From: Candidatus Doudnabacteria bacterium
GTDB lineage: Bacteria > Patescibacteriota > JAQUNI01
Length of the DNA stretch: 64,000 bases
Direction of reading: 5' to 3'
Assembly: GCA_041644975.1 (NCBI GenBank)
Contig: JBAZQX010000001.1
Location: 39,274 to 103,273 of the forward strand
The position numbers were made by a program, and so were the translations under genes. Position 1 is the first letter of the stretch, and every line of letters begins with the position of its first letter. Positions 3,233 to 63,601 of this stretch are shown here, one piece after another. A model generated the notes under the pieces. The model was not told the origin of the DNA and did no database searches. It worked only from the letters and a program-made list of their open reading frames with translations.

Positions 3233-3261
3233 ACTATAGATCTTTTACAAAATAACCTTTT

Positions 3262-3518: not shown

Positions 3519-3581
3519 GAGAACCGTTAGCCCCTGTTGGAAATAAATTTTTAAACGGGGTTAGAAAATGAGGTTCTCTAA
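3519..3581 (+). other. long imperfect stem-loop (agagaacc...ggttctct outer stem, cccctgtt/aacgggg inner stem); a possible structured RNA or regulatory element
   Basis: The inverted repeats are visible in the sequence. It sits ~100 nt downstream of the candidate promoter and is followed by a T-run at ~3595-3600. Confidence 0.3.
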
Positions 3582-3602
3582 TGGGGTTTATTTGCTTTTT
3601 TA

Positions 3603-3733
3603 GCTAATTTATGGCACAATGTGGAATCTCGTAGTTAGTAATTAGTAATCAGCAATAGAGGTCAATCCGCCGCGAAGCGGCGAAAGTTACTGAGATTACC
3701 GGTTGCTAGTTACCAATTACCAGTTACTATTTT
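3603..3733. repeat. AT-rich inverted tandem repeats (agtaattagtaatcag ... ctagttaccaattaccagttact) flanking a GC hairpin ccgccgcGAAgcggcg
   Basis: Direct reading. The same gtaatcagtaat unit recurs at 9953-9975. Confidence 0.6.
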
Positions 3734-8755: not shown

Positions 8756-9952
8756 TTGCTTAATTGTTCAATTATTAAATTACCTATGCGCATCCTTTTT
8801 ATTACGCGCAAGCATCCCCCTACTATTGGTGGTATGCAGAACCTGTCCTATAACCTTATTCAAAATTTTCTGAAGCAAGGCAGAGAAAGGGGCGACCAGA
8901 TAGAGACAATTATTCTTAACAAGAGTCAGTGGCATTTATTTTGGTGGTTTCCTTATGCTTTATTCTTAACTTTGGTTAAAGCAAGGACAGTGGATATTGT
9001 TCATTTAGGCGATCCTGTCATTTTTTTAATTGGTTTTTTAGCGCGCGTGTTTTACCATAAAGCCGTCGCGGTAACGATTCATGGTTTGGATGTAACCTTT
9101 AATCTCTTTTTATACCAGTGGTATTTAAAACTTTTTGGTCGAAAGTTTGATCGTTATATTTGCATTTCCAGCTATGCCCGGGAAGAAGCGCGAAAGGTAG
9201 GTTTTTCTCCTTGCGTGGTGATTCCTGTTGGCGTGGACAGCAAGAAGTGCAAAGTGCCTGCCCGCCATCGCTTCGCCCGCCCGCAACGCCTTGCGGCTAG
9301 CATGGCGGGCGCGGCTTCAGGCGAGGCGGGCGGGCAAAGTGCAAAGTGCAAAGTTTTGGAAAAACATTTTTTACAGAAACATTTTTTGCCAATTGCTAGT
9401 TTTAAGTTATTAACCGTAGGGCGGTTGGTAAAACGTAAAGGAGTATTTTGGTTTATTCAAGAAGTTATGCCATGTTTACCCAAAGAGATTACTTATTTAG
9501 TAGTGGGAGAAGGGCCGGAACGTGAGAGAATTAAAATCTTGATTCAAGAGAGAGGTTTAGAGGAAAGAGTTTATCTCTTAGGTAAAGTTTCCGAAGAGGA
9601 TTTAAAAACAGTTTATAGCCTCGCTGATTTGTTTATTATGCCTAATATTAAGGTCCAAGGGGATGTTGAAGGGTTTGGACTTGTGGCTGTGGAAGCGGCT
9701 CAAAATGGTCTACCTGTCATTGCCGCGGGTATTGAAGGCATCCGTGATGCGGTGGTTTCGGGACGTAATGGTATTTTGGTGGAGTCAGAAAACCCTGATG
9801 CTTTTCGGAAGCAGATCTTGGAGTTCTTAAGGAACCAGGAATACAGAAAGAGTTTTGGTTATCAAGCCGCGCAATTCACGATGGAAACCTATGATTGGCA
9901 AATAATCGCCAAGCGGTATTACGAGGAATTTTTAAGGGTAATTAGTAGTTAG
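8756..9952 (+). CDS. GT4-family (GT-B) glycosyltransferase carrying an in-frame GC-rich insertion. The likely start is the Met at ~8786.
   Basis: It has VIPVGVD ... VGRLVKRKG ... EGFGLVAVEAAQNGLPVIA (EX7E). There is a ~30-aa GC-encoded insert between the GVD and VGRL motifs. Confidence 0.75.
   Translation: MLNCSIIKLPMRILFITRKHPPTIGGMQNLSYNLIQNFLKQGRERGDQIETIILNKSQWHLFWWFPYALFLTLVKARTVDIVHLGDPVIFLIGFLARVFYHKAVAVTIHGLDVTFNLFLYQWYLKLFGRKFDRYICISSYAREEARKVGFSPCVVIPVGVDSKKCKVPARHRFARPQRLAASMAGAASGEAGGQSAKCKVLEKHFLQKHFLPIASFKLLTVGRLVKRKGVFWFIQEVMPCLPKEITYLVVGEGPERERIKILIQERGLEERVYLLGKVSEEDLKTVYSLADLFIMPNIKVQGDVEGFGLVAVEAAQNGLPVIAAGIEGIRDAVVSGRNGILVESENPDAFRKQILEFLRNQEYRKSFGYQAAQFTMETYDWQIIAKRYYEEFLRVISS
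9258..9334. repeat. GC-rich palindromic mini-element, family A (core CCTGCCCGCCATCGCTTCGC...CTTCAGGCGAGGCGGGCGGG), lying inside a coding sequence
   Basis: It is >75% GC in an AT-rich gene. It is flanked by the direct repeat caaagtgc (~9250-9257 and ~9335-9342). The core reappears at ~62324-62363. Confidence 0.7.
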
Positions 9953-16041: not shown

Positions 16042-17205
16042 ATGCTGATCGGCATTGATGCCTCGCGTGGTTTCTTAAAAAAACGCACGGGAGTGGAAGA
16101 ATATTCTTATCAAATCGTGCAGGCGTTAACAAAAGTTGATTCTCAAAATCAATATATTTTGTATTTAAACGGCCAAGAGAACAAGGAAGTGGCGCGAGGG
16201 ATTGCGTGGCCTTCAAATTTTAAATTTAAAAATATCCCTTTTCCAAGGCTTTGGGTGCATCTAGCTTTGTGTTTAATGGCTTGGCGGGATAAGCTTGATG
16301 TTTTGTTTATCCCGGCGCAGGCAATGCCAATTTTTTACCCGCGGAAAACTGTTGTTACTTTGCATGGTTTGGAATATGAGCATTACCCAGAAAGTTATTC
16401 TGTTTTTCGGCGTTTTTACCTCCGTTTTACAACGAAATTTAGCTTAAAGCATGCGGCGAAGATTATTGCTGTTTCGGAGAACACAGAAAAGGATTTGATT
16501 AAAATGTATGGTGGAGATGCGGAGAGAATTAAAGTGGTCTATCATGGTTTTAATATTATATTTCCCTCCCCCTCCATCTCCCCCTCGGGCAGGGGGAGTG
16601 ATAGCCCTCCCCTTTCCAAGGGGAGGTTGGGAGGGGTTCTGGAAATTAAAGACGGGGAAAATGATCAGTTATTTATTTTAACCATTGGCCGTTTGGAAGC
16701 GCGCAAGAATATTGTTAATTTAATTCGCGCTTTTGAACTGATAAAAAGAGAAGGCTGGACCGGGAAGTTGGTTTTAGTCGGTCAGCAGGGTTATGGTTAC
16801 ACAGAGATTAAGAGAGCGATACAAGATTCAGCCTATCAAGAAGATATTATTGAGAAAGGCTTTGTGAGTGAAGAAGAAAAATGGCAGATTTTGCAATCCG
16901 CCACGGCATTTGTTTTTCCTTCTTTTTATGAGGGTTTTGGCATGCCGCTTTTAGAAGCGTTCGCCGCGGATGTGCCGGTTGCGGTATCCAACACTTCTTC
17001 TTTGCCTGAAATTGGAGGAGACGCTTGCGTTTATTTTAATCCCGATAATGTTGACGATATAACGCGAAAGATAAGAGAGGTTTTAGAGAATAAAAACCTG
17101 CGTCAAAATTTGATCCAAAAGGGTCAAATGCGTTTAGCTAATTTTGGCTGGCAAAAGTGCGCTCTAGAGACCTTATTAATATTAGAAATAAGTCACCACA
17201 CTTAG
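16042..17205 (+). CDS. GT4-family glycosyltransferase carrying an in-frame GC-rich insertion
   Basis: It has VVYHGFN ... ILTIGRLEARKN ... EGFGMPLLEAFAADVPV (EX7E). An extra ~25 aa (FPSPSISPSGRGSDSPPLSKGRLGGV) is encoded by a GC-rich palindromic element. Confidence 0.75.
   Translation: MLIGIDASRGFLKKRTGVEEYSYQIVQALTKVDSQNQYILYLNGQENKEVARGIAWPSNFKFKNIPFPRLWVHLALCLMAWRDKLDVLFIPAQAMPIFYPRKTVVTLHGLEYEHYPESYSVFRRFYLRFTTKFSLKHAAKIIAVSENTEKDLIKMYGGDAERIKVVYHGFNIIFPSPSISPSGRGSDSPPLSKGRLGGVLEIKDGENDQLFILTIGRLEARKNIVNLIRAFELIKREGWTGKLVLVGQQGYGYTEIKRAIQDSAYQEDIIEKGFVSEEEKWQILQSATAFVFPSFYEGFGMPLLEAFAADVPVAVSNTSSLPEIGGDACVYFNPDNVDDITRKIREVLENKNLRQNLIQKGQMRLANFGWQKCALETLLILEISHHT
16563..16638. repeat. GC-rich palindromic mini-element, family B (CTCCCCC-N-GGGGGAG hairpins; contains gggcagggggagtg), lying inside a coding sequence
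   Basis: The hairpins are ctccccctcgggcagggggag and cctcccctttccaaggggagg. A 14-mer is shared with ~62414-62427. Confidence 0.7.
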
Positions 17206-17227: not shown

Positions 17228-18382
17228 CTATTGAATAGTTTCCTGAAACAGAGTTTCTAGCTGCCCAACCATTTTATTCCAATCATACTTCGCCGCTTCT
17301 TTTTTGCCCCTCTCACCCATTTTTTGGCGCAAGGCGGGATCGCTAAGCAGTTTATTGATGTAATAGGCTGTTTTTTTGTAATCACCTACAGGGGTTAAAA
17401 ATCCCGCCTCATTATTCGGCACTAGATATGGAACTGCGGAGTGATTAGTGGACACAATTGGTAGTCCCGCGGCCATCGCTTCGGCAAGGACAATACCAAA
17501 AGCCTCATATTTGGTTGGCAGGCAGAAGAGAGTGGCGTTTTGATAAGCGGAGTGTAGATCTTCCCTTTTTAATTTTCCGAGCCAAAGAAGTTTATCTTGG
17601 ACATTATATTTGATGGCTAGATGAACGAATGTTTCTTTATCGGCAAAGTCAGTGCCGGCAATGGCGACAATGGTATTGGGATGTTTTTTTAAGACTTCAG
17701 GCAGGGCTTTGATTAAAATATCAACCCCCTTGCCATAGCAGATGCGCCCGGCAAAAAAGATAATATTTTCATCTTGTATATTATATTGCTCAAAAACGTT
17801 GTAAGGAATTTTTTGCTTCAGTGCTGATTCAATGCCTGGCGGGATAATGATAATCTTTTTGGGTTTGTAATCTTTTAAGATTAACGCCTTTTCAAATTCT
17901 GAAATTGCGATGACGCAGTCCGCAGCCATAGTTAAGCTGCCGAAAATCTTGCGATAGCAAAACCATTTTTTTGCCTCGCGGCTCTCTAGGTAAAAATAAG
18001 GGTGCAAGATAAATGGCACTCTTTTTATTTTGGAAAGAAGCCAGGCAATATCCGCGGAATAGTAATAAAAATTGTGGGTGTAGATTAAATCTAGGTTTTT
18101 TGTCTGAAGCGCCGCTTTCAGCATACCCTGAAAATAGGGGTAAGGAAACTTGCCCTGGTATTTTGCTCTAAAGCGGCGGACATAGGGAGGGTCATTTTGA
18201 TATTCTTCCGCGGTTAAATACACAGGCGGAATACTATGGCTTCTAAGATTAGAGGTCAAAACTTGGACATTGTGGCCTTTTTTGCTCAAACCTTCAGTGG
18301 ATTGATAAATCATCTCTTCCGCGCCGCCTGGAGCGGGAGGATAGCGGAGACAAGTGGTTAAGATATTGAGTTTCCTTGACAT
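17228..18382 (-). CDS. GT4-family glycosyltransferase
   Basis: It has EAFGIVLAEAMAAGLPIVST (EX7E) and a GT-B layout. Confidence 0.75.
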   Translation of the reverse strand: MSRKLNILTTCLRYPPAPGGAEEMIYQSTEGLSKKGHNVQVLTSNLRSHSIPPVYLTAEEYQNDPPYVRRFRAKYQGKFPYPYFQGMLKAALQTKNLDLIYTHNFYYYSADIAWLLSKIKRVPFILHPYFYLESREAKKWFCYRKIFGSLTMAADCVIAISEFEKALILKDYKPKKIIIIPPGIESALKQKIPYNVFEQYNIQDENIIFFAGRICYGKGVDILIKALPEVLKKHPNTIVAIAGTDFADKETFVHLAIKYNVQDKLLWLGKLKREDLHSAYQNATLFCLPTKYEAFGIVLAEAMAAGLPIVSTNHSAVPYLVPNNEAGFLTPVGDYKKTAYYINKLLSDPALRQKMGERGKKEAAKYDWNKMVGQLETLFQETIQ

Positions 18383-18540
18383 AGATAATGAGATCGTCGT
18401 TGCGAGGAGGAAGGCGAAGCCGAAGCCTGACGACGAAGCAATCTCCTAAAAGAGTAAAGGTTTGTCATCCAAAATTATTTAATTTTATGAGATTGCCGCG
18501 TCGCTCTTTGGGGTCGCTCCTCGCTAATAGACGAGAAGAA
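18383..18540. repeat. GC-rich patch: hairpin cgtcgt-tgcgaggaggaaggcgaagccgaagcctga-cgacg plus a CTCCTCGCTAATAGACGAGAAG copy of the cysN-upstream arm
   Basis: Direct reading. The second part lies within the 3' end of the 18465..19340 CDS and encodes LLARSD. Confidence 0.55.
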
Positions 18541-19340
18541 TTTTGCCAATATTTGATACGGGTAACTGATTCATAAAAAGTTCCAAACAGCGCATAGACG
18601 AAGCCGTGGATGCCATCTTTATATCCTTGATGCCGAAAATAGCGCGAGATAAAAAAGCGCAAAGGGCGGTAAATGAAAAACCAAGCTAAAGACCAAGGAT
18701 TATGCAAAGTCATTTTAATCTCGCGGCCATAACGGTCTTTTTTTGTTTTTACCATTTCCTTTGCGTCAATTTCCGTGTAGCGGATAAATTTTTCAAAATA
18801 GTGATTAACAGTATCAAAAGAATAATGCAAATAGTGATTTTTTAAAAATCCTGAATCTCGATCTTCACGCTTAACAATTCTTCCCTCTTTGTCCGCCACT
18901 TGTTCGTGAACATCACGCACCCAATGGCTGCCATTATTACGGAATAGTCTTAGGTGTGGGCAGGGATACCAAGCTCCATGGCGCAAAGGGTGTCCTAAAA
19001 AATAGGTTTGAAAAGGAATCCAATAGAAATTTTGGGCAGGGTTTTTCAAGATTGCTAAGATTTCAGTTTTAAGCTTTGGGGTTATCCTTTCATCAGGATC
19101 AATCTGTAAAATCCAGTCGCCCGTTGTGTATTGCAAGCCAAAATTCCTTTGTTTGGCGTAAGAATTGTCCCAGCGGCGCGTATAGATTTTATCTGTATAC
19201 GCTTTGACGATTTTTTGTGTCCCATCATCGCTTTCCGCGTCCACAATTATAATTTCATCCGTCCATTGGACGGATTTTAAGCATTCTTTCAGCTTATCGG
19301 CATTATTATAAGTGATGATGAGAGCGGAAATTTTAGGCAT
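18465..19340 (-). CDS. GT2-family glycosyltransferase
   Basis: It has ISALIITYNNADKLKECL, IIIVDAESDDGT and QIDPDE motifs. Confidence 0.7.
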   Translation of the reverse strand: MPKISALIITYNNADKLKECLKSVQWTDEIIIVDAESDDGTQKIVKAYTDKIYTRRWDNSYAKQRNFGLQYTTGDWILQIDPDERITPKLKTEILAILKNPAQNFYWIPFQTYFLGHPLRHGAWYPCPHLRLFRNNGSHWVRDVHEQVADKEGRIVKREDRDSGFLKNHYLHYSFDTVNHYFEKFIRYTEIDAKEMVKTKKDRYGREIKMTLHNPWSLAWFFIYRPLRFFISRYFRHQGYKDGIHGFVYALFGTFYESVTRIKYWQNSSRLLARSDPKERRGNLIKLNNFG

Positions 19341-29915: not shown

Positions 29916-31205
29916 TTAGTTGGAAATTATTCCTCCTGCCACCACATCACAGTTACGGACTAAAACAAAGCGACCTAATTCAGGTAAGATGTTGAATTTT
30001 TCAATCACCAATGGATTATTTGCTTGGATTATTACCTCTCCGATTTCTGTCTCCATAAGATGCAGAGCCTCTTCTTCAATGATTTTTAAAGTAGAGGAGT
30101 CTATTCTTTTAATAATTTTCACAATTTTCGCTTTCACTTCCTGGGTAGCGCAATGCAAGATTATTGTTTCATCTCTTTTTAGTTTTTCTTTAGACATCCA
30201 TAAAATACTGGCCTTAAATTCTTGGACGATTTGCGGTTTATTTAGGGGCCCAGAGATTACTTCTCCTCTTTCAATAAATAATGGATCGGTGATAGTAATA
30301 CCAATATTCTGACCTGCGGAGGCTTGTTGTAAATCCTTTTGTAGGAAAATTTCAATAGTTTTTACAGTACTTTCTTTATTGGAAAGAAGGAAAGTAATTT
30401 TATCTCCTATTTGAATTTTTCCTGCTTCTACGCGGCCCGCAATGATTCTTTTATCCCCTACCTTATAAACATCCTGCACAAGATAACGCAATGACTTTTT
30501 TATGGGTAAGGCGCTAGCCTTGAGGTTACCTAAAGCCTCTACAACAGTTGGTCCTTGGTACCAGTGCATTTTGGGGGATAAGGAAACAATATTATCACCC
30601 TCCTTTGCGGAAATAGGGATAATGTAATTAAGATTGAGATTGATTTTTCTTAAAAACGTCTTAAAGCTTTTTTTAATTTCTTTGAATCTTTCAGAGCTAT
30701 AATTCACCATATCCATTTTGTTAATAAGGAGAATAATTTGCTTCAAACCCAGAAGACTTAAGATATAGGCATGCCTTTGGGTTTGTTCTTGAATTCCTTC
30801 TTTAGCGTCAATAATAATCATCGCCGCCTCGGCTTGGGAGGCTCCAGTGACCATATTCTTAATAAATTCTTTGTGACCGGGCGCATCAATAATAACATAA
30901 TTTCTTTTTTTAGTTTTGAAAAAGAATTGAGTGGTGTCAATGGTAATCCCTTGCTCCCGCTCTTCTTGAAGGTGATCAAGAATGAAAGCTAGTTCCAGTG
31001 GTTTTCCAAGTTTGTCACAAGTTTTTTTTATTTCCTCAAGATATCCTTCCGAAAGGGAATTTGTGTCATATAAAAGTCTGCCTATTAAGGTAGATTTGCC
31101 ATGATCCACATGTCCTACGATGATAATTTTTAAATTTTCTCGCTCCATAAATAAAGTTAACCTTAAATTACGAAGCACATCGTCTGTGAGCGAGGGATCC
31201 GCCAT
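29916..31205 (-). CDS. cysN: sulfate adenylyltransferase subunit 1 (GTPase)
   Basis: [37 protein letters not shown] and INKMD match CysN specifically. There is no fused APS-kinase domain (429 aa). Confidence 0.8.
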
Positions 31206-31230
31206 GGGCAGACTCCTCGCTAATAGACGA
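31180..31230 (-). promoter_or_regulatory. 14/16-bp inverted repeat (tcgtctgtgagcgagg / cctcgctaatagacga) bracketing the cysN start codon and Shine-Dalgarno GAGGAG; a possible translational control hairpin
   Basis: Direct reading. The 19-nt loop contains the ATG (31203-31205). The SD lies partly in the 5' stem arm. Confidence 0.4.
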
Positions 31231-31348
31231 AAAGGGAGTTTCGTAATTCATAGAAGTTAATTATTTTTTGTTTTTTGCATTCAATATATGAGCGCCTTAA
31301 ACCACCTTTTTTTTCCTTGTAAAAAAGCATTTTAAAAAGTGGGCGGTT

Positions 31349-32149
31349 TCACATATAGCCAAGGGAGCGCAATTTTTGCATCATATAAGCAGTTTCTTTA
31401 TCTTGAGCTCTACCTGATCGTTCGGCGATTTTAGTAGTTTCTAGCTCCGCCACAATCTCTGCGAGCGTAGAGGCATTGGAATCAATAGGCATACAACAAG
31501 GCTCACAGCCAATACTGCGGTAACGTTTTCCTTCTTTTGCAAAATATAATTTGACGATTGGGATATTTTCTCTTTTTATATAAGCCCAAATGTCTTTTTC
31601 TGTCCAATGTAAGAGAGGGTGCACCCGTATATGTTCCGATTCCTCTTTTTTGTTCTTATATTGATCCCAAAGTTCAGGGGGTTGATTTTTGTAATCCCAG
31701 GTGAATTCCTGATCGCGAGGGGAAAAATATCTTTCTTTGGCTCGGATTCCATGTTCGTCGCGTCGGATTCCCAAAAGAAGAGCGTTCAATTTATGTTCTG
31801 CCATTATTTGCTTTAGCGCATTGGTTTTAAGTTCAGTGCAGCATTCTAGTTTGCCCTTTCCCGGGCAGACACCGCGCCCTAATGCTTCTTTATTTTGGCT
31901 AATAATTAAGCGCAGGTTCCACTCCAGAGCATAATGATCTCGGAATTCATAGATTTCTTTAAATTTAAAGCTGGTATCAATATGAATTACAGGAAAAGGA
32001 ACCTCGCCATAAAAAGCCTTACGGCAAAGCCAAATTAAGGTAGTGGAATCTTTTCCGATTGACCAAAGAGCGGCAATATCATGAAATTGTTTGTAAGCCT
32101 CACGGATGATATAAATACTCTTAGATTCTAATTCATCAAGATGTTGCAT
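31349..32149 (-). CDS. cysD: sulfate adenylyltransferase subunit 2
   Basis: The PAPS-reductase-fold SIGKDSTTLIWL P-loop and its overall length and pattern match CysD. Confidence 0.85.
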   Translation of the reverse strand: MQHLDELESKSIYIIREAYKQFHDIAALWSIGKDSTTLIWLCRKAFYGEVPFPVIHIDTSFKFKEIYEFRDHYALEWNLRLIISQNKEALGRGVCPGKGKLECCTELKTNALKQIMAEHKLNALLLGIRRDEHGIRAKERYFSPRDQEFTWDYKNQPPELWDQYKNKKEESEHIRVHPLLHWTEKDIWAYIKRENIPIVKLYFAKEGKRYRSIGCEPCCMPIDSNASTLAEIVAELETTKIAERSGRAQDKETAYMMQKLRSLGYM

Positions 32150-32197: not shown

Positions 32198-34831
32198 TTA
32201 TGGTTTTATTATATCATTTTTTACTTTTTTGGCTAGGATCCAGACAAGATAGCCGCAGGAGATGATAAAGAAGATACTAGATATAGTAAGACCAAGGTAG
32301 AATAATCTTTGGGGCCAGAATTCTACAGTTAGTGCAAAGTCATAACTACCATCCTGATTTTTAATGCAATTGCTTGGCTGCTCGCAGATTTTTTGAACGT
32401 CAAGCCACCAGGAATTAGCATAACCATTAACAATAAAATGTTGATCTTGAGCGAGGGGCTTCCTTCCCCAAGTTTCCCAGAAGGGTCCCCCTTTCAAATT
32501 TTCGTTTTGGATTGTATCTTGATAATTTTTAGAGATAAAAGCAATCTTATATTTTTCTAAATGATCTAGTTCCTTTTTTTCACTATTCAAAAATTGATAA
32601 TATTTGATCTTTTTTTCCCGACCGTCACCAAGGGTGGAAACCCAACCTTTTTCAATAAAGTGTGAGACTTCTTCTTTTTGCGCTTGATTTTCCTCGTTAC
32701 CCTCTAGAATTTTATAATCTTGAAGCAGTGAATCAAAGGAGTTGTTGTTAGAATAAGACAAATCTATATTTCTTTTGATTTGATATATTTTCCAATCTTT
32801 AGAAAAAGTTTCACTTAAAATGAGGGGAAAATTCTCTCTCGCTTTATGAATAAAAACAATATATTTGGTGGGATTTATCTTTTTGAATTCCAGGATTGGT
32901 TTTTCATTAATTCGCGTGGGTAAAGAACTGGTTTTTTGAGATTGTTCTTTGCTATCCGCAAGATAAATCGCGGTTGGTTTCAGGAGGTTTTGGGAGGATA
33001 GAACTTCGGGCAGATCTTTGGTGAATTGTGACGAAACCTTAATCTCTTCAGGAACATATAAATGAGGTAGAAAATAAACAGAGGAAACTTCATAGAGCTC
33101 AAGGGGGCCAAAAGATTGTACCAGATTAATGTCTTTTTCTTTTTCAAGATTTTCCTTAATTTCGCGCGGAGAATCCGAATTTTCATAAAATTGATCATCA
33201 ACATCATTTTCCAGAATTATGTATTGCATGTTAAAAAAGCCTGCAAGTTTCAATAAGGTATTGAAAAAGTCTTTCTGTTGTCTAATGCTGTAGAGCATTT
33301 GGTAAATAGGGTCAGAGATGCTTTTTTGGTAGGTGGCAAAGAATTTTTCTCCTAGATAGTAATATAAAGGATCTACTCCCTGATAATTCCATTTATAGGG
33401 AGTGAAATAGGTCCATTGCATAGGTAAGGCATAGGCGCGGAAAGCCATCTGTTTTTTATTTAAATAGGTGCTAATTTCGCGATAATAGAGAGGAATTGAT
33501 GTTTTGTTCGTGGCCAGGATGCCACTTTTATAATCTGGCAAGACTTGACCTTGCCAGAAAGGAAGAGCACACAGATGGATTACAAAAAGAGTTAGGAGAG
33601 CAAAAGCAAAGGCGTACTTCAATTTTATTTTTTCCATAATCCTATGGATTGCAATCCCTAGCAAGAGGCTAAAGGCAAAAATAAAGATCATGCCGATTTT
33701 ATCCAGAGGATTACGGAACATTGAAAAGGTCTCAAAGTGACTGAATAAAAATTTATAGATTGATCCTAAAGGTGGGTTGGGGCCATAGAGTAGGGCAAAA
33801 CTGACTAGACTAAGAATGCCGAAGATGAGCGTATATTTTTTATATTTATTCTTAGCGAAAGCAGAATAAGCCAAAATCGGGATTATGAATCCTAAAAGGA
33901 TGAAGAATGGCTGTTCATAAAGTGAACCGTAGGGATAGTAGAGATATCCTTTAAACTTTCCCCAAAATCCCCAGTGTCCCAAAAAGCGAAGACCATCGGC
34001 CATTTTGTAAAAAGAGTTAACCACGGCGATATGTTTGAGATTAGTGTCCGCCATTTGCGCAATCTCTTCTTGTTCATTAAAGAAAGCAGCGGTGTAGGGC
34101 AAGATAATGAGGGACCAGGTAAGAAATAAGGAGCCGCTTAAGAGAAGGAAATGCTGTATTTGTTTTTTTAGATCAACCTTCTTCCTTTGCTTGGATAGCA
34201 AAAGATTCATTAAAAAATAATAGACTACGATGCCAAAGATTAGGAATAAATAAACTGGATTATCTGCCGCGGGTGAGGCGAGAAAAGCGGTCAGCACTAG
34301 GAGGGCGCAGTCTTTTTTGGTAGGACGTTTTAAGATGCGGATGCAGAAGAGCAGAATGAGAGGCAAAAAGCCATAAGCGAAGAGCACCATTGCGCGTGGC
34401 CAAAGGAACAAAAAAGAAAAAACATTAAACATATAAAGATTTGCCGCCAAGAAGGCAGCCAATTCCCTTAATCGTCCTTTCAAAATATGCCTCATCAAAA
34501 TAAAGAAGGCAAAACCCGCGGTTAAAAGCCAGTAGGAAAAAAGTAACCGTTCAATTTCTAGAAGCGGTAGATTGATTTTATGGAGAAGATAAATCGGTAA
34601 TTGGTAAGCGGGCAGTAGAGCTGTACCTCGATCTTGAGCATAGCCCAGATAGACAGGATTCCAGGTAAAGATTCTGGTGCGCAGGGCATCCTCTGGAGAA
34701 AAAGTAAAAGCAAAATCTCCGATAGAAAGCCATAGTGTGTTTAACCAAAAAAAAGGCGCTAGTGCCTCCAAGAAGATTAAAATGAGGAATATTTTAGTTT
34801 GGTGTTTTTGAAGATATTGGTGAATGATCAT
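32198..34831 (-). CDS. YfhO-family GT-C-like membrane protein (N-terminal ~560-aa polytopic domain, extracytoplasmic domain, C-terminal TM)
   Basis: The architecture and the C-terminal block LSETFSKDW..IVNGYANSWWLD..LTVEFWPQ..TM are shared with the other YfhO-like paralogs. Confidence 0.6.
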   Translation of the reverse strand: MIIHQYLQKHQTKIFLILIFLEALAPFFWLNTLWLSIGDFAFTFSPEDALRTRIFTWNPVYLGYAQDRGTALLPAYQLPIYLLHKINLPLLEIERLLFSYWLLTAGFAFFILMRHILKGRLRELAAFLAANLYMFNVFSFLFLWPRAMVLFAYGFLPLILLFCIRILKRPTKKDCALLVLTAFLASPAADNPVYLFLIFGIVVYYFLMNLLLSKQRKKVDLKKQIQHFLLLSGSLFLTWSLIILPYTAAFFNEQEEIAQMADTNLKHIAVVNSFYKMADGLRFLGHWGFWGKFKGYLYYPYGSLYEQPFFILLGFIIPILAYSAFAKNKYKKYTLIFGILSLVSFALLYGPNPPLGSIYKFLFSHFETFSMFRNPLDKIGMIFIFAFSLLLGIAIHRIMEKIKLKYAFAFALLTLFVIHLCALPFWQGQVLPDYKSGILATNKTSIPLYYREISTYLNKKQMAFRAYALPMQWTYFTPYKWNYQGVDPLYYYLGEKFFATYQKSISDPIYQMLYSIRQQKDFFNTLLKLAGFFNMQYIILENDVDDQFYENSDSPREIKENLEKEKDINLVQSFGPLELYEVSSVYFLPHLYVPEEIKVSSQFTKDLPEVLSSQNLLKPTAIYLADSKEQSQKTSSLPTRINEKPILEFKKINPTKYIVFIHKARENFPLILSETFSKDWKIYQIKRNIDLSYSNNNSFDSLLQDYKILEGNEENQAQKEEVSHFIEKGWVSTLGDGREKKIKYYQFLNSEKKELDHLEKYKIAFISKNYQDTIQNENLKGGPFWETWGRKPLAQDQHFIVNGYANSWWLDVQKICEQPSNCIKNQDGSYDFALTVEFWPQRLFYLGLTISSIFFIISCGYLVWILAKKVKNDIIKP

Positions 34832-34837
34832 AGGTAC

Positions 34838-34865
34838 CTTGAATTACGAAATGACCTTAAAATCC
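34838..34865 (-). promoter_or_regulatory. conserved 28-nt element cttgaattacgaaatgaccttaaaatcc located 6 nt upstream of the start codon; a second copy is at 55691-55718
   Basis: 24 of 28 nt are identical between the two copies. The offset from the ATG is identical. It contains the near-palindrome GAATTACGAAAT. Confidence 0.45.
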
Positions 34866-34914
34866 ACTTTTAAAAAGAAAACTTTCCATTTTAATAAGGA
34901 GTAAAAGATGAATT

Positions 34915-36855
34915 TTATAATTCACCGTAGGTAGTAAAGGAGTGCAATTTTTTTGCAATCCCTAAAGAGATTCGGGATATAAAATAAGCGCTAAAGATGG
35001 TAAATAAAGGTATTAAGGGATAGCGGAAACGAGCGTCACCAAAACCTAAAATGATGATGGTGGCGAGGTATAGTAAAATTAAATTTAGGGAAAAGATGGC
35101 AAAAAGATTGTTTTTTGCAAAGAGATTAAAGACAAGACCTAAACTGCCAGTGACAAGGACAAAAAGATAGAGCTTTTGGGCGAGGTAAATAATATAACGG
35201 AAGTATTCTTCAGAGAGTTTGCCTAGATCAGAACGTGTCGGAATATCTACGCTTGGCTTAAAAAGAATCTCTATTTTTTTAATCCCTACTTCAATAAATT
35301 GTTGAGGGTGATTGAAGATATGTTTTATGCCGAGTTTTAAATAAATTTTGTCTGACAAAGCTTCTGCTTGGGGAGAGGTAGGATAACGTAACTCTTTTGT
35401 AATTCCCGCCTCTTGAAGATATTCTTCCGTAGGCCAGTTCCCGATTCCCTGTGACCAAGGGTTATTGCCTAATATTACATTAATCCCTGAAGTGGACACT
35501 AAAACTATTTGGCCGCTCACCAAATAATTGCGTATGGTCCAGGGGGCAATAAGGAGAAGACCAAATAAAGAAACAAAAAAGGTAATCTTTAAACTCCTTA
35601 CAAGATGTTTTTGGTAAAAGAGATAGCTAAAAAATATCACCAAGGGCAGAAAGAAAAAAGCCGGCCTAATCAGAGTGGCTATCCCCCAGAAGAAACCAGC
35701 GGGAATGATGTAGCGCCAATATATTTTTCCGCTTCGCCAGAAACCATGGGTTGCGGCGGGTTTTTTAATTTGATACAGTAAAAATAGAATAAAGAATAAA
35801 AGGAAAAAAACAAAAAGCACCTCGGTCAATAGTGTGGAGATATAAAAGATATTTTCTAAATAAATAGCGTAAATAAGAGAGCCAGCCAAGGCTACTTTTT
35901 GTTTAAAGTACTGCTTGGCAATCAAGTAGACAAGCAAAACATTGATAGCCCCCACAATAATTTGAAGAACGCGGACAAGCTGGTAATTGTCGCGCGAGAA
36001 CATAAAGACTGACGCCAAGAAAAGAGGGTAACCTACAGGGCGGTACATTGAGTGGATTACGCCATAACCACTGTAAGTATGATCGTATGCTATACTGCGC
36101 GCATAATTAACATAAGAAGCAGCATCACTAATTGGTTTCATGGGCAGGATAAAGACCCAGAGGGTATTGATAGTGAGAGCTATACCTAGGATTATACACA
36201 AGTATCCTCGCATTTGCTTTTGAGGAACAAGGTAGATCGTAACTAGAATGAAAATGAAAAGGAGAGGGAGGAAGAGCTTTAATAAGCGGCTAAGCAGTAT
36301 AGATATTGTTCCCCACGGCGAGGTAGCTTCGTAAATATATATTTCGTTGATTTGTTGTAATTTGTCGCTGCTTTCTGTTTTCTGGATCCACAAGCGTATT
36401 TTGTCAGTCTGAATGGGATGGAGAGCAAAAAGGTGTACTTTGTAGTCACTTTTATTATTTTTGACCTCCAGATTATTTTTCCACTGATCGCCGTCCGCTG
36501 CCTGAATTTTATAATTTTGAGCCACGCGCGTTTTAGTAAAAGAAAGGTCTATCTTACTGATTTTGTGAGCCACGGGCCAGTTAATTTCGATCAGGTTGGG
36601 TTCATCGGGCGTCACCTTGCCATACCACCAAGTTTCAGGTGAGCCGTCAATCACACTTTTCACCGCTCCTCCTGTTTCCGGATTATTGCTATCTTGGGTT
36701 TGTTTTGCTCTGATCAGAGAGGATTGTGAAACAATATTTTGAATATCGGGAGTTCCTTTGAAAGTGAGGGTTAAAGTCAGTAAAATGATAACTACTAATG
36801 AAATAAGGAGAATATTCCAGATTTTTTTAAAATTTAAGTTCATGATTCTTTTCAA
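34915..36855 (-). CDS. GT-C family glycosyltransferase (PMT/ArnT-like, PMT_2) with an N-terminal extracytoplasmic discoidin (F5/8 type C) domain
   Basis: It has an N-terminal TM. SVIDGSPETWWYG...NLIEINW is an F5/8-C signature. DAASYVNYARSIAYDHTYSGYG...RPVGYPLFLA is a GT39/GT83-like first loop. It has ~11 TM helices. Confidence 0.55.
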   Translation of the reverse strand: MKRIMNLNFKKIWNILLISLVVIILLTLTLTFKGTPDIQNIVSQSSLIRAKQTQDSNNPETGGAVKSVIDGSPETWWYGKVTPDEPNLIEINWPVAHKISKIDLSFTKTRVAQNYKIQAADGDQWKNNLEVKNNKSDYKVHLFALHPIQTDKIRLWIQKTESSDKLQQINEIYIYEATSPWGTISILLSRLLKLFLPLLFIFILVTIYLVPQKQMRGYLCIILGIALTINTLWVFILPMKPISDAASYVNYARSIAYDHTYSGYGVIHSMYRPVGYPLFLASVFMFSRDNYQLVRVLQIIVGAINVLLVYLIAKQYFKQKVALAGSLIYAIYLENIFYISTLLTEVLFVFFLLFFILFLLYQIKKPAATHGFWRSGKIYWRYIIPAGFFWGIATLIRPAFFFLPLVIFFSYLFYQKHLVRSLKITFFVSLFGLLLIAPWTIRNYLVSGQIVLVSTSGINVILGNNPWSQGIGNWPTEEYLQEAGITKELRYPTSPQAEALSDKIYLKLGIKHIFNHPQQFIEVGIKKIEILFKPSVDIPTRSDLGKLSEEYFRYIIYLAQKLYLFVLVTGSLGLVFNLFAKNNLFAIFSLNLILLYLATIIILGFGDARFRYPLIPLFTIFSAYFISRISLGIAKKLHSFTTYGEL

Positions 36856-36948
36856 ACCTTGGATTAAGAAACGGCATTAAAATACTGTTTTTAGGAAAAA
36901 AATATTTTTTTCTTTATAGCAGATTAGCAAAATAAGACATGTAAAAAA

Positions 36949-39065: not shown

Positions 39066-39170
39066 TGTCCGCTTGAGGCGGATGACACAGGATTTCGCTT
39101 TTCTTAAAAAATCCCTCTTGGAGCCGATGCTTATGAACCGTAAGTCTATGGAGGGTTTCACTTCATAGAG
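39066..39170. repeat. conserved intergenic two-hairpin motif, copy 1 (tccgcttgaggcgga; ggatttcgcttttcttaaaaaatccc; gatgcttatgaaccgtaagtctatggagggtttcac)
   Basis: Related copies are at 51757-51830, 55746-55815 and a partial copy at 3262-3310. The first stem shows compensatory changes between copies (ggattt/aaatcc versus gggtttc/gaaaccc). Confidence 0.6.
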
Positions 39171-51756: not shown

Positions 51757-51830
51757 AGTTTCGCCTTCTAAAATTCCGTCTGGACCTGATGCTCATGAGC
51801 TGTCAGGCCGGGGAGGGTTTCACTCTGAGT
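51757..51830. repeat. conserved intergenic two-hairpin motif, copy 2 (agtttcgccttctaaaatt ... gatgctcatgagctgtcaggccggggagggtttcac)
   Basis: See copy 1. It lies ~260 nt upstream of the radical SAM gene start. Confidence 0.55.
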
Positions 51831-54610: not shown

Positions 54611-55684
54611 CTATTTGGCAGTGAAGGATTTAAAAATCTTTTTCTTATTTTTTTTCAAGATAAATTTTTGGATTACTACATATCCGTAGGCATATAGAAA
54701 CATCAAACAAACTAAAGGATGCATAAACCAGGCTGCATCTTTTTTTTTCCGAAATCCGCGGCAGGCATCTAAAAAGGGTTTCAATATTGTGAGGGTAAAA
54801 AATATATATTCTACTAATAAAAGATTATCCTTGATATTCTTACTATCGTATATTTTATATCTTCTTCTGTCAACAAGTTTGATGCTATGTTTTTGGAAAT
54901 AATCAATTCTTTTTTTGATAAGCCTGCGGAACGAATCACCCGTTTCATGAATAATGGTATTTTTAACGAAAGCGATATTTTGGTAGCCCAATTTAACTAA
55001 ATCAAAGATAATATCAATATGGAAAAGGTCTTCGGGAATAGTTAAAACTTTTTCTAGCAGCTTTCTTCTCACAAGGAAACCATTGCTTCCAACAGTAGGT
55101 AGATCTTGATCAAATTTTACTTTGTAATATATGCCTTGATCGTGAGCACAGCCCTTTAATTTCCAAGATGAATAATAGTAGGGCAAACGGTCCTGCTTTT
55201 TCAAATAGAGAGCCACTGGATCGTTAGCGCCAAATAGCGCACAATAGCGGTTGAATAGAGTATCATTTTTGCGATAAGCGTAACGTAAGGTTTGGGAAGC
55301 AAAAATTTCAGAATCATTGAGGAAGGGTGTCACCATATCTTTAAACCAAGTTTGATAAGGCAAGAGATTGTCTGTATCAATAATTGCTACGATTTCATTG
55401 CGTGCCTTTTTAATTCCCCAAAAGCGACGTGCTTCTTGATTGTCCTGATATCCTCCCTCAATAAATTCAGCTTTATATTTGCGGGCTATTTCTTGACTTG
55501 TATCAGTTGAACCGCCATCAGTAACTAAAATTTCTATCTTCTCTTGGGAGTAGTCTTGGCTACGAATACTCTGGAGGCATTTCTCTAGTTTAGGTGCGTT
55601 ATTGAAGTTGGCGATAACTACAGATAAAGAAAGCCAGCAAGGCTCTGAGATTCGGTGTTTTATTGGAGATGAATTAATTTCCAT
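54611..55684 (-). CDS. GT2-family glycosyltransferase with C-terminal TM helices
   Basis: It has LSVVIANFNNAPKLEKCL, LVTDGGSTD and a DxD region, plus two C-terminal TM helices. Confidence 0.7.
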   Translation of the reverse strand: MEINSSPIKHRISEPCWLSLSVVIANFNNAPKLEKCLQSIRSQDYSQEKIEILVTDGGSTDTSQEIARKYKAEFIEGGYQDNQEARRFWGIKKARNEIVAIIDTDNLLPYQTWFKDMVTPFLNDSEIFASQTLRYAYRKNDTLFNRYCALFGANDPVALYLKKQDRLPYYYSSWKLKGCAHDQGIYYKVKFDQDLPTVGSNGFLVRRKLLEKVLTIPEDLFHIDIIFDLVKLGYQNIAFVKNTIIHETGDSFRRLIKKRIDYFQKHSIKLVDRRRYKIYDSKNIKDNLLLVEYIFFTLTILKPFLDACRGFRKKKDAAWFMHPLVCLMFLYAYGYVVIQKFILKKNKKKIFKSFTAK

Positions 55685-55690
55685 TATAAA

Positions 55691-55718
55691 CTTGAATTAT
55701 GAAATGTCCTTCAAAAAT
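55691..55718 (-). promoter_or_regulatory. second copy of the 28-nt start-proximal element (cttgaattatgaaatgtccttcaaaaat), 6 nt upstream of the 54611..55684 start
   Basis: See the copy at 34838-34865. Confidence 0.45.
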
Positions 55719-55745: not shown

Positions 55746-55815
55746 GGGTTTCGCCCTTACTGAAACCCCATTCGGAGTAGATGCTTATGAGCCGTGAAGT
55801 CGTGGAGGGCTTCAC
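55746..55815. repeat. conserved two-hairpin motif, copy 3 (gggtttcgcccttactgaaaccc ... gatgcttatgagccgtgaagtcgtggagggcttcac), overlapping the 3' end of the 55757..56968 CDS
   Basis: The last ~18 codons (EALHDFTAHKHLLRMGFQ) and the stop of the upstream gene are encoded by the motif. Confidence 0.55.
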
Positions 55816-61533: not shown

Positions 61534-62082
61534 TTGCACTTATGGGGAATACAGCATCTTGCATTTTGTTTGTATTGGAAAAGGAGAATTATAATGGAAA
61601 ATAGTGAAGGACGAATTCAGGTGTGGGGCGACACAGCTATTCTTGTCAATCTGGACGCGCCGCCAGAATTGCCTTTTGACAAAGCGATTATTGAACCAAA
61701 GATAGGTAGAGGTAGTGGTTGGGTTAAAGTTGAAAAGTGCGAGGATGGATTGTATATAAATGACCATAGGGTTATTCTGTATCTATCCGAACAGCAGAAG
61801 GGCGGGAAAGTGATTAGCGGCTTCAAGCTGAACGAGGAGCTTTTAGGAAAGCCCGTGCTTCATCCAAATATTTTAGATGCTCTTCTTGAGCATTTAGACC
61901 TCATTCCGGAGGATTGGAAAAAGCGTTACCTCTATATATTTTTTTGGGCAGTCATTTTCCGCGACTCCGATGGCCGTTTCTTTGTCCGTTTCCTATATTT
62001 CGACGGCGAGCGGTGGCAATGGGGCTACAGCGGGATCTACGTTGGCTGGGATAACGACGACCCCGCGGCGTTGCTCGTCTGA
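61534..62082 (+). CDS. hypothetical soluble protein. The likely start is at ~61594, preceded by AAGGAG.
   Basis: It is an ORF with a good Shine-Dalgarno (aaaggagaattataATG). No family was recognised. The 3' half is noticeably GC-richer than its neighbours. Confidence 0.4.
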   Translation: MHLWGIQHLAFCLYWKRRIIMENSEGRIQVWGDTAILVNLDAPPELPFDKAIIEPKIGRGSGWVKVEKCEDGLYINDHRVILYLSEQQKGGKVISGFKLNEELLGKPVLHPNILDALLEHLDLIPEDWKKRYLYIFFWAVIFRDSDGRFFVRFLYFDGERWQWGYSGIYVGWDNDDPAALLV

Positions 62083-62210
62083 AGATCTGGCGTAGCCATG
62101 ACAAGCTGAAAGTCCTGACGGAGGAAGGGTTAGTGCTTTAAGACTTTGTTTCTTGGGTCTTTTGTTTCTTGGAACTAAAGTCCTTGGAATATTGTGCGCT
62201 TACAATTCCA

Positions 62211-62245
62211 GGCCTCACGCAGAAATGCATGAAGCCTTTTTTATT
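62211..62245 (+). terminator. candidate rho-independent terminator (ggcctcacg / catgaagcc stem, then TTTTTTATT)
   Basis: It is an imperfect 9-bp stem followed by a T-run downstream of the 61534..62082 stop. Confidence 0.35.
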
Positions 62246-62247
62246 AT

Positions 62248-62475
62248 CTTAACCTTAAATTACGAAATTCACTTTGTCTATTAGCGAGCGATTTTTTCCT
62301 CCCCTTGACCTGCGGGAGGTTAGCCTGCCCGCCATCGCTTCGCTTCAGGCGAGGCGGGCGGGGAAGGGTCTAATAAATGACTATTCTCCCTCCCCCTCTT
62401 ATCTCCCCGCTCAGGGCAGGGGGAGTGTAATCAAGTTTTTCGCAATGACGACATATTTCGTAATTCATAGTATCT
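62248..62475. repeat. composite repeat region: a copy of the cysN 5' flank (cttaaccttaaattacgaaattcactttgtctattagcgagcg ... tttcgtaattcatag) whose interior is occupied by GC-rich elements (a hairpin at ~62298-62319, the family A core at ~62324-62363 and a family B segment at ~62386-62427)
   Basis: Direct comparison with 31155-31255. The terminal inverted motifs are ATTACGAAA and TTTCGTAAT. Confidence 0.6.
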
Positions 62476-63601
62476 TTAATAATTTTTCTTTTGATTTTGC
62501 GTAATTGTTTTCAGAGAGTTTTTGAGAGGCGAGTTGTTGGATGTTTTGATAAAATGTGGAATCAGAAATTAATTTTTCCGCAAGCTCTATCCCCTGCCCT
62601 GTCCCCGCAATATCGGGAATGGACAGTTCGGGGAAGAATTCTAATTGGTTATTGGCGTTTATGCCGATACTAGGCGTGCCTACGGCGGCGCAATCAGCCT
62701 GTAAGCGACCCAAGGTCCAAGTCTGGTCCGTATTAATTACCAGGAAAAAGCATGCGAGTCTTTTTAAGTTTTCCTGCCACTTTAAGAAAGGAATAATCTC
62801 AAAGCGGGCATGCGCCGTTTTTAGTGGGGCAATATTTGAATGGGGGTAATCTATTACCTGGATCAAAAACTCTGGATATTTTTTTTGGATTTGAACTGCG
62901 GCGAATTGGCCAGCGAGATTATCTGTTCGCTCGGTTTCTCCGGCCACGAGAATAATTTTTTCTTTTTTTTCTCTTTTTTTAAAAAACCGGTCGGCATATT
63001 CAAAGGGATAGAATTGCGGAAAATAAGCTACTTTGGTGTGAAGAAAGGATTGGAGATAATCCTGCGCGTCGCGATTCACATTAATAAAAATATCACAATT
63101 ATTAGCAAAGGTTTTAAAAGCGCGAAATTCATTTTCCTTTTTCCAGACCTCGCGCAACGTTCCTAGAGGACTGACAATGGAACCTAAATAGATCGCGTCA
63201 GGATTGATTTTTTTTGTTTTTCTGATTAAATCTGCCATTAGAGGCATAGAGAAGCTGTGCACCAAGAACAAAATAAGATTAAATTTTTTAAGATAATCCA
63301 AATTGCGATAGATTGGTTTTTTTTGAATCTTTTCCAGGGACAGATCTAGTTTGCGGCCGAGTTTATAGGAAAGAGTATGTGGATTTTGATGGCGGCGCAA
63401 AAAGTTGACTGGGATATGCTCGCCAGAGAGCGCCGATGTCCAACAGCCAAAAGAAGTGGGGTCAATTTCCGTTTCAGGATCGCAGAGATAATTAGGTTTT
63501 TCCGGGGTTGGCCGCCAAATCCTCCCTGTTTTGGTGGAATATTCAATACAGGCAAATCTCATTTTTTCTATAGATTTTTGGAAAATTTTATTCTTGGACA
63601 T
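62465..63601 (-). CDS. hypothetical protein, possibly a GT-B-fold glycosyltransferase
   Basis: It is 378 aa. The C-terminal region TDQTWTLGRLQADCAAVGTPSIG resembles a GT-B donor-binding region. The call is weak. Confidence 0.3.
   Translation of the reverse strand: MSKNKIFQKSIEKMRFACIEYSTKTGRIWRPTPEKPNYLCDPETEIDPTSFGCWTSALSGEHIPVNFLRRHQNPHTLSYKLGRKLDLSLEKIQKKPIYRNLDYLKKFNLILFLVHSFSMPLMADLIRKTKKINPDAIYLGSIVSPLGTLREVWKKENEFRAFKTFANNCDIFINVNRDAQDYLQSFLHTKVAYFPQFYPFEYADRFFKKREKKEKIILVAGETERTDNLAGQFAAVQIQKKYPEFLIQVIDYPHSNIAPLKTAHARFEIIPFLKWQENLKRLACFFLVINTDQTWTLGRLQADCAAVGTPSIGINANNQLEFFPELSIPDIAGTGQGIELAEKLISDSTFYQNIQQLASQKLSENNYAKSKEKLLKIL

Follow-up and report, generated by a model that had tools for sequence, protein, structure and literature searches.

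A nested hairpin element in a Candidatus Doudnabacteria contig as a probable miniature derivative of IS982-family insertion sequences found across CPR bacteria

Introduction

The question addressed here is what kind of sequence occupies positions 62248-62475 of a 64,000-nt stretch of Candidatus Doudnabacteria DNA (GenBank assembly GCA_041644975.1, contig JBAZQX010000001.1, forward-strand positions 39,274 to 103,273). This whole stretch is called the window, and positions are given in its numbering unless a locus outside it is named. A first-pass annotation, made from the letters of the window, had noted that the two ends of this interval are inverted relative to each other and match the region around the start of a cysN-like gene. 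It proposed either a transposon-like unit with short terminal inverted repeats (TIRs) and variable cargo, that is, a MITE (a miniature transposable element with inverted repeats), or a cysN 5' end that had itself been built from such a unit. The observations described below indicate that the interval very probably holds a nested MITE, a non-coding hairpin derivative of a group of IS982-family insertion sequences that is widespread in the Candidate Phyla Radiation (CPR, or Patescibacteria).

Related hairpins with sharp boundaries in the window

The site at cysN (copy 1) and the interval in question (copy 2) resemble each other at both ends. At the left, 62249-62266 is identical to 31157-31174 over 18 nt, and the likeness of the two left arms spans 44 nt (local alignment score 47; best of 300 shuffles 25). 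An exact match of 15 nt was also present at the right, where 62456-62470 equals 31239-31253, although the coordinates first given for the cysN site (31237-31251) were shifted by 2; this likeness runs on into AT-rich flanking sequence (alignment score 41, against 31 for the best shuffle). The ends are mutually inverted as described (AATTACGAAAT / ATTTCGTAATT), and inverted repeats are present at both copies. The bare 9-mer ATTACGAAA occurs four times in the window against 1.4 expected, a count equalled in 7 of 100 shuffles and not significant alone. The significance of the pair is instead due to the longer alignment and to the copies found in other genomes.

Both copies fold into long hairpins, that of copy 1 being near-perfect (-43.9 kcal/mol, z -7.6) and that of copy 2 reaching -89.8 kcal/mol (z -5.6). 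The interior of copy 2, of about 165 nt, holds three GC-rich hairpins (B', family A and family B), again as first described. The short TIRs that had been predicted are present at both copies and follow the pattern C-Y-T-T-G-AATTACGAAA-Y, but they are 15-16 nt long (CYTTGAATTACGAAAY) rather than 9 nt. The 'TTAA' that opens the shared 18-mer lies outside the element and is part of two different target duplications. The flanks of the two sites are unrelated.

A third copy was found in the window, so that the copies measure 93 nt (copy 1), 218 nt (copy 2) and 91 nt (copy 3). The right TIR of copy 3 matches at 12 of 15 positions (TTTTATAATTCACCG against TTTCGTAATTCAAGG, counted by hand), and its hairpin is now weak. 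The open reading frames (ORFs) that overlap the three copies are spurious only, and the copies have no transposase or real coding capacity.

A dispersed family in CPR/Patescibacteria

Further paired copies were found by scanning 185,579 genomes, one per species, with the pattern AATTACGAA-N55-85-TTCGTAATTYAWRG. At least 119 loci have the same ends, nearly all of them in Patescibacteria genomes, whereas chance alone would give, by our own estimate, about 4 at 50% GC, and as many as about 40 were all genomes of 36% GC; matches resembling chance were seen at loci L014, L022, L056 and L113. The carriers listed are Parcubacteria, Campbell-, Nealson-, Falkow-, Taylor-, Staskawicz-, Yonath-, Ryan-, Colwell-, Lipton-, Magasanik-, Moranii- and Saccharibacteria. 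The extracted elements have the ends CYTTGAATTACGAAAY … RTTTCGTAATTCAARG in common, and their interiors are unrelated between subfamilies. Their median length is 110 nt (range 68-184, in 134 external copies), and the interiors alone fold strongly (median z -5.6).

The boundaries of these elements are sharp. Conservation breaks off 5 nt outside the 9-mer, and information content has fallen to background by 6 nt outside; the outer 5 nt of the TIRs co-vary between the two ends (e.g. CCCCG…CGGGG). Target-site duplications lie directly beyond. An exact direct 6-mer immediately flanks the ends of 30 of 136 elements, where permuted partners predict 1.1, and direct repeats of at least 6 nt (mode 6-7 nt) flank 77 of the 136, where 4.4 are expected. 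Non-palindromic flanking 6-mers were direct in 23 cases and inverted in none, and the flanking repeats are therefore no extension of the stem.

The elements are strongly biased towards intergenic positions (about 150 of 161, in DNA that is 83% coding). Two syntenic gene pairs lie 144 and 209 nt apart in Campbellbacteria MFAC01, which has a MITE in each gap, versus 18 and 47 nt in Patescibacteria JBBTTR01, which has none (L012 versus L058); a third syntenic gap holds a MITE in both genomes. Loci L020 and L043, whose proteins are 80-96% identical, have one orthologous insertion in common and differ in another. In MFAC01 at least 38 copies were counted in about 100 kb, a density that is biased upward because the blocks were chosen for holding a match.

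A number of subsidiary observations were made on the family. A 105-nt subfamily with a conserved asymmetric interior (GCAAAAATTTAGGTCCTCGGGTCGCAAAA…TTTTGCTCAACCAGACC…) occurs in several Parcubacteria and Campbellbacteria genomes (L012, L015, L019, L023, L029, L036, L052, L057, L062, L065, L087, L092, L101, L120 and others); the copies in MFAC01 belong mostly to it and number up to three per 8 kb. A candidate for a longer element in L012 proved to be a decayed small copy. MITEs of the CPR type are also present on contigs binned outside CPR (L002; L090, Gammaproteobacteria; L091, Lysobacteraceae; L060, Pacearchaeota), which may reflect mis-binning or horizontal transfer.

Intergenic hairpins built from inverted heptad arrays, (AATTACG)n…(CGTAATT)n, occur in Chitinophaga, Parabacteroides, Saprospiraceae, Pyrinomonadaceae and other Acidobacteriota (L009, L016, L018, L030, L051, L073, L078, L083-L085, L088, L093, L095, L119; L121). 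These arrays often start with CTTTG or finish with CAAAG, like the CPR TIR, and no obvious target duplication was seen at them. The IMG/VR contig L121 has at least 10 such arrays in 10 kb. The paired-end pattern gave a single match in IMG/VR, on a heptad-array contig, and no CPR MITE.

Transposase-encoding elements with the same ends

A single-end scan of viral contigs (IMG/VR) gave 92 single matches, which is about chance level by our own estimate. One of them is a 1,025-bp element (L148, positions 2866-3890 of that locus) with the ends CTTTGAATTACAAAAT / ATTTCGTAATTCAAAG and a TATCCA duplication. Its single ORF encodes a protein of 268 aa with the DDE domain PF13612 (E 3.5e-28), for which the best NCBIfam model is IS982, at 114 bits and under the cut-off of 130. 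The homologues of this protein number 2,693, and most of them lie on contigs about 1 kb long, a usual sign of insertion sequences whose many copies break assemblies. The proteins P0138, P0208 and P0181 score above the same cut-off (135, 135.9 and 135.7 bits, respectively); the host of P0138 is Candidatus Yanofskybacteria, and P0208 is a Patescibacteria protein with the NCBI name 'IS982 family transposase'.

Elements of the P0138, P0208 and P0181 type are 1,021-1,023 bp long and, L148 included, encode a DDE transposase of 266-269 aa. The same TIR, at least 16-18 nt long in these elements of about 1.02 kb, stands at every element end that lies inside its contig (L220-L236), three contigs finishing short of the far end. 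The ends read CCTTGAATTACGAAACTCC… / …GGTTTCGTAATTCAAGG, CTTTGAATTACGAAACTCC… / …GAGTTTCGTAATTCAAAG and CTTTGAATTACGAAATACC… / …GGTATTTTGTAATTCAGAG, and exact 7-bp duplications were found around the insertion sequences in L222 (TATATAT) and L231 (TATAATA). The CTATG end of copy 1 and the ends of the P0138 and P0208 elements have GAATTACGAAACTCC[C/A]TTTTC in common, with 20 of 21 positions agreeing beyond the core.

In the ISfinder scheme, members of the IS982 family are about 1 kb long and have one transposase ORF, TIRs and a duplication of 3-9 bp. The autonomous elements described here fit this layout in length, in their single ORF, in their TIRs and in their short duplication. Because of the shared ends, including the match of copy 1 beyond the core, the window elements are very probably MITEs of this IS982-family group. 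The first-pass reading of the interval as MITE-like, with short TIRs and cargo that varies, is supported by extra paired copies, sharp boundaries, target-site duplications and an autonomous partner.

These observations suggest a simple route. An IS982-family DDE transposase encoded elsewhere would recognise the 15-16-nt ends (CYTTGAATTACGAAAY) and insert the element into AT-rich DNA by a staggered cut, producing the duplication of about 7 bp that is seen at the copies. The 93-nt element at 31161-31253 would be a simple member of the subfamily to which copy 2 belongs, and the 218-nt copy would be the same backbone with GC-rich modules (B', family A and family B) in its apical region.

In 875 kb of MITE-bearing loci, searches for long-range TIR pairs and generic inverted repeats gave only MITE-to-MITE matches and AT-rich noise, and clustering of the ORFs in MITE-selected loci gave orthologues only, with no multi-copy transposase. 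Among the autonomous elements, the identical P0138 insertion sequence (L220-L229) has the same left flank but different right flanks across assemblies: left flanks are common to L220 and L221 and to L222 and L227, and the duplication TAAAATA is split, with its left copy in L223 and its right copy in L221, L224 and L227. Such mixed flanks resemble either chimeras made when assembly ran across a multi-copy insertion sequence or genuine recombinants.

Weighing of the explanations

Several points weigh against the reading of copy 2 as an IS982-derived MITE. Transposition is read from its footprints, and mobilisation in trans in this genome is presumed. Neither the 64-kb window nor the roughly 10 kb past its left edge yielded an IS982-type transposase gene (and those 10 kb held no further MITE). 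A recognisable duplication is absent in 32 of the 136 elements, and the two duplications of copy 2 differ by one T (TATCTTAA/TATCTTTAA), yet both would be expected of insertions that are old. None of the window copies yielded an exact empty site, the copy 1 pattern having 0 matches in JGI metagenomes, and the flanks in the syntenic comparisons are too diverged for a clean single-copy target. Finally, no flanking duplication was seen around the insertions and deletions (indels) of the GC-rich hairpins.

The alternatives fit the observations less well. Copy 2 had been described as a duplicate of the cysN 5' flank, and a recent local duplication with later insertion of GC-rich sequence, and with no mobile family involved, would suit the presence in the window of only two full copies with the exact 18-mer and 15-mer. 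The likeness, however, reaches precisely as far as the TIR boundaries, the flanking duplication of one copy differs from that of the other, and the 119 or more further copies lie in other genomes, with sisters of the same subfamily in unrelated contexts. The external copies and the copy-specific target duplications refute a local duplication and leave it next to no probability; the two sites are independent insertions of one transposon family. It is also very unlikely that the elements are host-selected RNA or DNA structures (intercistronic terminators, mRNA-stabilising or processing hairpins, or an operator) whose ends are kept by selection. Such a role would agree with their intergenic position, often tightly fitted from the stop of one gene to the start of the following one, and with a TIR that carries TGA and an AAGG/AAAG end: of 109 facing stop codons at the external loci, 8 fall within the element, mostly as the TGA of CTTTGAATT, and 15 more within the duplication, and 12 of 85 facing start codons, by crude predictions, lie 4-7 nt from the element end. 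Related AATTACG hairpins are also found filling the spaces between genes of Bacteroidota and of one phage-like contig. Conservation and spread are nevertheless accounted for by the target-site duplications and by a transposase element with identical ends, and the distribution of gap types (tandem:convergent:divergent) is like the background (104:19:13 versus 583:90:86). The interiors are unrelated between subfamilies, and no intrinsic terminator (GC-rich stem and T-tract) was found at copies 1 and 2, on either strand of 30900-31500 and 62000-62700. Rfam 15 covariance models gave 0 matches in the whole window, and scans of the window for tRNA and tmRNA were likewise empty. Some copies may have been put to secondary use (exaptation), and the hairpin or the stop and AAGG motifs borne by the TIR may serve in regulation.

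A further alternative, highly improbable for copy 2 as a whole, is a set of palindromes of the repetitive extragenic palindrome (REP) or bacterial interspersed mosaic element (BIME) kind, spread as single-stranded DNA by a REP-associated tyrosine transposase (RAYT) of the IS200/IS605 type and leaving no target duplication. The hairpin form, the intergenic placing, the mosaic modules and the nesting are all BIME-like, as these elements are generally known, and the nested GC-rich hairpins lack flanking duplications. The AATTACGAAA-ended unit, on the other hand, combines TIRs and an IS982-type DDE partner with duplications of about 7 bp, a misfit for Y1 transposases, and the explanation could apply solely to the GC-rich cargo hairpins. 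A cysDN riboswitch or attenuator, an integron attC, a XerCD/dif-type site, an intrinsic terminator and REP/RAYT were each considered and rejected, failing on the duplications, the DDE partner, the absent context bias or the missing T-tract.

The cysN start and the ends of other genes

The public gene model of the cysN-like GTPase (429 aa) starts at an ATG in the loop of copy 1, and if CysN were translated from this codon (31203-31205) its first 19 residues would be MITE-derived. An open frame does run from the loop ATG into the gene. It is nevertheless quite unlikely that the MITE contributes coding sequence in this way. The protein was aligned with nine homologues of 409-419 aa from among the best 120 matches, the best non-self match being 62% identical: the 19-codon extension is present in none of the nine, seven begin at the internal Met, and the other two have short unrelated extensions. 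The loop ATG lies, besides, in a hairpin of -44 kcal/mol with no Shine-Dalgarno motif before it. Because the homologues start at the internal Met and the ATG is in a MITE loop, the extension is most probably a gene-calling artefact, and the true start, to judge from the alignment, is probably 31146-31148. The proposal that the cysN 5' end was built from a MITE unit is thus correct for the annotated gene model only.

Copy 1 lies between cysD (31349..32149, minus strand) and the cysN-like gene; the neighbouring genes are all on the minus strand, within a long glycosylation and cell-envelope cluster. Copy 2 lies between two convergent genes, over the stop codon of a 378-aa ORF (62465..63601, minus strand). 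The ends of genes before insertion were reconstructed by removing the MITE and one copy of the duplication. The 378-aa ORF now terminates in …LLKIL*, with its TGA in the TIR, and would have terminated in …LLR* or …LLKIIKKASCISA*. The final codons of ORF 34915..36855, with its stop, come from copy 3; the ORF now ends in …FTTYGEL* and would have ended in …FTTYDHSPISSKTPN*. A TIR-terminal AAGG of this copy is 5 nt before the ATG of an 877-aa ORF.

The side effects of insertion differ between the copies: the loop ATG of copy 1 probably accounts for a spurious cysN extension, the TIR of copy 2 carries the TGA stop of the 378-aa ORF, and copy 3 both ends one gene and puts a Shine-Dalgarno-like AAGG in front of the following gene. 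As the start-codon calls at the external loci are crude, the use of the TIR as a ribosome-binding site through its AAGG is only a suggestion.

Nested GC-rich hairpins

The subfamily pattern AATTACGAA-N5-13-GTCTRTKAGCGAG located three sister copies of the window elements in JGI metagenomes (L122, L123 and L124). L124, from a different metagenome and in a context unrelated to that of the window, aligns with copy 2 from end to end, through TIRs, arms, family B and B'. The sole gap is a clean one of 39 nt, 62324-62362, which is family A. As this sister sits in an unrelated context, the composite with B and B' appears to be a unit that transposes as a whole; the 39-nt family A would be either a later gain of the window copy or a loss in the sister. 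In L122 these arms come with a family-A-like hairpin and further modules, and L123 has two inverted GTCTATTAGCGAGG…GAAGCAATCTC modules without family A. A Taylorbacteria copy (L081 5872) has a 41-nt GC-rich hairpin that is missing from three sister copies, and further long nested copies are present at L080 7, L075 1115, L021 5809 and L063 3312. Since these GC-rich indels have no flanking duplication, their mechanism is taken to be unlike that of the MITE.

The same hairpins occur in the window outside MITEs. Family A (9252-9342, in ORF 8756..9952) lies in frame in the linker between the two Rossmann domains of a GT4 glycosyltransferase, and the B+B' unit (16558-16640, in ORF 16042..17205) lies in frame in the interdomain linker of a second GT4 glycosyltransferase; both appear as insertions relative to paralogues. 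In the family A copy at 9256-9334 the loop itself encloses another hairpin. Within the acetate kinase gene of the same genome (L125 6288-6331) the 21-mer GCTTCAGGCGAGGCGGGCGGG is found again. Two inverted GTCnTTnGCGAGG…GAAGCAATCTC modules, at 18383-18440 and 18490-18535, extend over the place where ORF 18465..19340 stops and ORF 17228..18382 starts. An 18-mer there (CTCCTCGCTAATAGACGA) is identical to the right inner arm of MITE copy 1, and modules of this type build the interiors of the sister MITEs L122 and L123.

A tentative explanation, which we consider possible but rather doubtful, is that the GC-rich hairpins (A, B/B' and GTCnTTnGCGAGG…GAAGCAATCTC) are a second, independent class of very small mobile elements, for which the IS982-type MITE would be both landing pad and vehicle, with a TIR shaped to be 'operon-compatible'. 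The points behind it are the lack of target duplication, the position in the apical loops of MITEs and of each other, the in-frame position in protein linkers, and the recurrence across CPR lineages. If it is true, a TIR with TGA at one end and AAGG at the other would let the MITE saturate the short intergenic spacers of CPR genomes. The behaviour of the GC-rich hairpins is the more novel residue of the finding.

Features of the window that belong to, or bear on, the element family
Feature	Position	Strand	Sequence	Remarks
Copy 2, whole element	62253-62470			
Copy 2, left target-site duplication	62245..62252		TATCTTAA	repeats 62471-62479 save for one extra T; 5 nt outside the 9-mer, as in the family
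Copy 2, left TIR	62253..62268		CCTTAAATTACGAAAT	fits consensus CYTTGAATTACGAAAY and the ends of IS982-type elements
Copy 2, left arm	62269..62297		…GTCTATTAGCGAGCGAT…	homologous to arms of copy 1 (local alignment to 31175-31199) and L122-L124
Nested GC-rich hairpin B'	62298..62319		CCTCCCCTTGACCTGCGGGAGG	related to 16606-16637 and L124 214-245; present in sister copy L124
Nested GC-rich hairpin, family A	62323..62363		GCCTGCCCGCC…GGCGGGCGGGG	two exact 21-mers in common with 9256-9276 and 9314-9334
Nested GC-rich hairpin, family B	62387..62427		TCCCTCCCCCTC…GGGCAGGGGGAGTG	related to 16563-16600 and L124 162-205
Copy 2, right arm	62428..62454		…TCGCAATGACGACAT	pairs with left arm; homologous to TCGCTAATAGACGA of copy 1 and of L124
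Copy 2, right TIR	62455..62470		ATTTCGTAATTCATAG	exact 15-mer also in copy 1; holds TGA stop (62465-62467) of minus-strand 378-aa ORF
Copy 2, right target-site duplication	62471..62479		TATCTTTAA	
Copy 1, left target-site duplication	31154..31160		AAGTTAA	exact 7-nt direct repeat of 31254-31260
Copy 1, simple 93-nt MITE	31161..31253		TIRs CCTTAAATTACGAAG / GTTTCGTAATTCATAG	between cysD and cysN-like gene
Copy 1, right target-site duplication	31254..31260		AAGTTAA	
ATG in loop of copy 1	31203..31205	-		cysN start in public gene model (429 aa)
Probable true start of cysN-like GTPase	31146..31148	-		7 of 9 aligned homologues begin here
Copy 3, left target-site duplication	34831..34836		TAGGTA	exact repeat of 34928-34933; overlaps the A of the ATG of the 877-aa ORF
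Copy 3, decayed 91-nt MITE	34837..34927		CCTTGAATTACGAAAT … TTTTATAATTCACCG	left TIR 16/16 to consensus
Copy 3, right target-site duplication	34928..34933		TAGGTA	
Solo TIR-like relic (low confidence)	55691..55705		CTTGAATTATGAAAT	one mismatch; 6 nt upstream of ATG of ORF 54611..55684; no convincing partner end located
Possible TIR relic (low confidence)	36857..36872		CCTTGGATTAAGAAAC	two mismatches; in 93-nt intergenic gap; no partner end located

Comparison with known systems

An IS982-derived MITE of about 240 bp (MITECca01 / ISCca4) has been described in Cardinium (PMC9769881), and this kind of element is therefore already known. Like the elements described here, MITECca01 is short, has no transposase, is present in many copies, bears the inverted repeats of an intact IS982-family element and is presumed to be mobilised in trans. 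The CPR elements differ in their hosts, in their end (CYTTGAATTACGAAAY) and in their length (80-110 nt versus about 240 bp), as well as in having one conserved end around many unrelated interiors across CPR classes, with nested GC-rich hairpins. No report of MITEs in CPR bacteria, or of this end sequence, was found in the literature searched, the coverage of which was incomplete, and the CPR group is apparently undescribed.

Other small elements resemble the CPR MITEs in part. Correia elements are MITEs, known only from Neisseria, that form hairpins of about 100-150 nt with 26-bp TIRs and a TA duplication. They are likewise TIR-bounded intergenic hairpins, likely to be transcribed together with their neighbours and able to alter gene ends or expression signals, but the elements described here lack the TA duplication and the 26-bp TIR, and have instead a duplication of about 7 bp, a TIR of 15-16 nt with another sequence, CPR hosts and an IS982 parent. 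REP/BIME and ERIC sequences are also modular, mosaic, intergenic palindromes, and ERIC copies can be enlarged by internal insertions at fixed sites, which resembles the relation of copy 2 to copy 1. REP sequences, in contrast, have no footprint of TIRs plus duplication and are linked to RAYT, whereas the outer unit of the present copies is a DDE element of the classical cut-or-copy type.

The mobile cassette MIC231 of Bacillus cereus consists of insertion-sequence ends around variable cargo and is mobilised in trans by the transposase of its parent. Such cassettes differ in being gene-bearing and kilobase-sized, with the ends of IS231 (IS4 family), while the cargo here is non-coding hairpins of 20-40 nt. 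Rickettsia palindromic elements invite comparison with the cargo hairpins only, being likewise small palindromes that lie between genes and in frame inside them; the sequences here are unrelated to them, are GC-rich in an AT-rich genome, and are nested in each other and in MITE loops.

Significance

CPR genomes are usually called streamlined, yet one MITE group with a nearly invariant end of 15-16 nt is present in many CPR classes, and in some genomes it reaches dozens of copies per 100 kb. A group of IS982-type transposases can now be named as its most likely mover. The practical effects for annotation include false start codons, as at cysN, supplied stop codons and possible ribosome-binding sites. 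Metagenome assemblies are probably broken by these elements, the parent insertion sequences lying mostly on contigs of about 1 kb. The conserved TIR provides a simple search key for annotation and, as a few carriers are labelled as other phyla, might mark the CPR origin of contigs. The GC-rich hairpins, without flanking duplication and in frame in genes, pose a mechanistic question that can be tested.

Other repeats in the window

Two further repeats were observed. A 147-nt intergenic block at 3444-3590 is 95% identical to L124 884-1029, where the neighbouring genes are different. It has a promoter-like pair, TTGACA…TAAAAT, just upstream (about 3411-3440), a closing stem (CCTCATTAGAGAA…TTCTCTAATGGGG) and two internal hairpins. 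Even at E<=1, Rfam gave no match for it. The block could be a gene for a small RNA, or one more small mobile element. A 60-nt repeat (CTTAAAAAATCCCTC…GGAGGGTTTCACT), which has no relation to the MITE, is present in three copies of 67-73% identity (39103-39162, 51765-51824 and 55757-55816), at or near the 3' ends of minus-strand genes.

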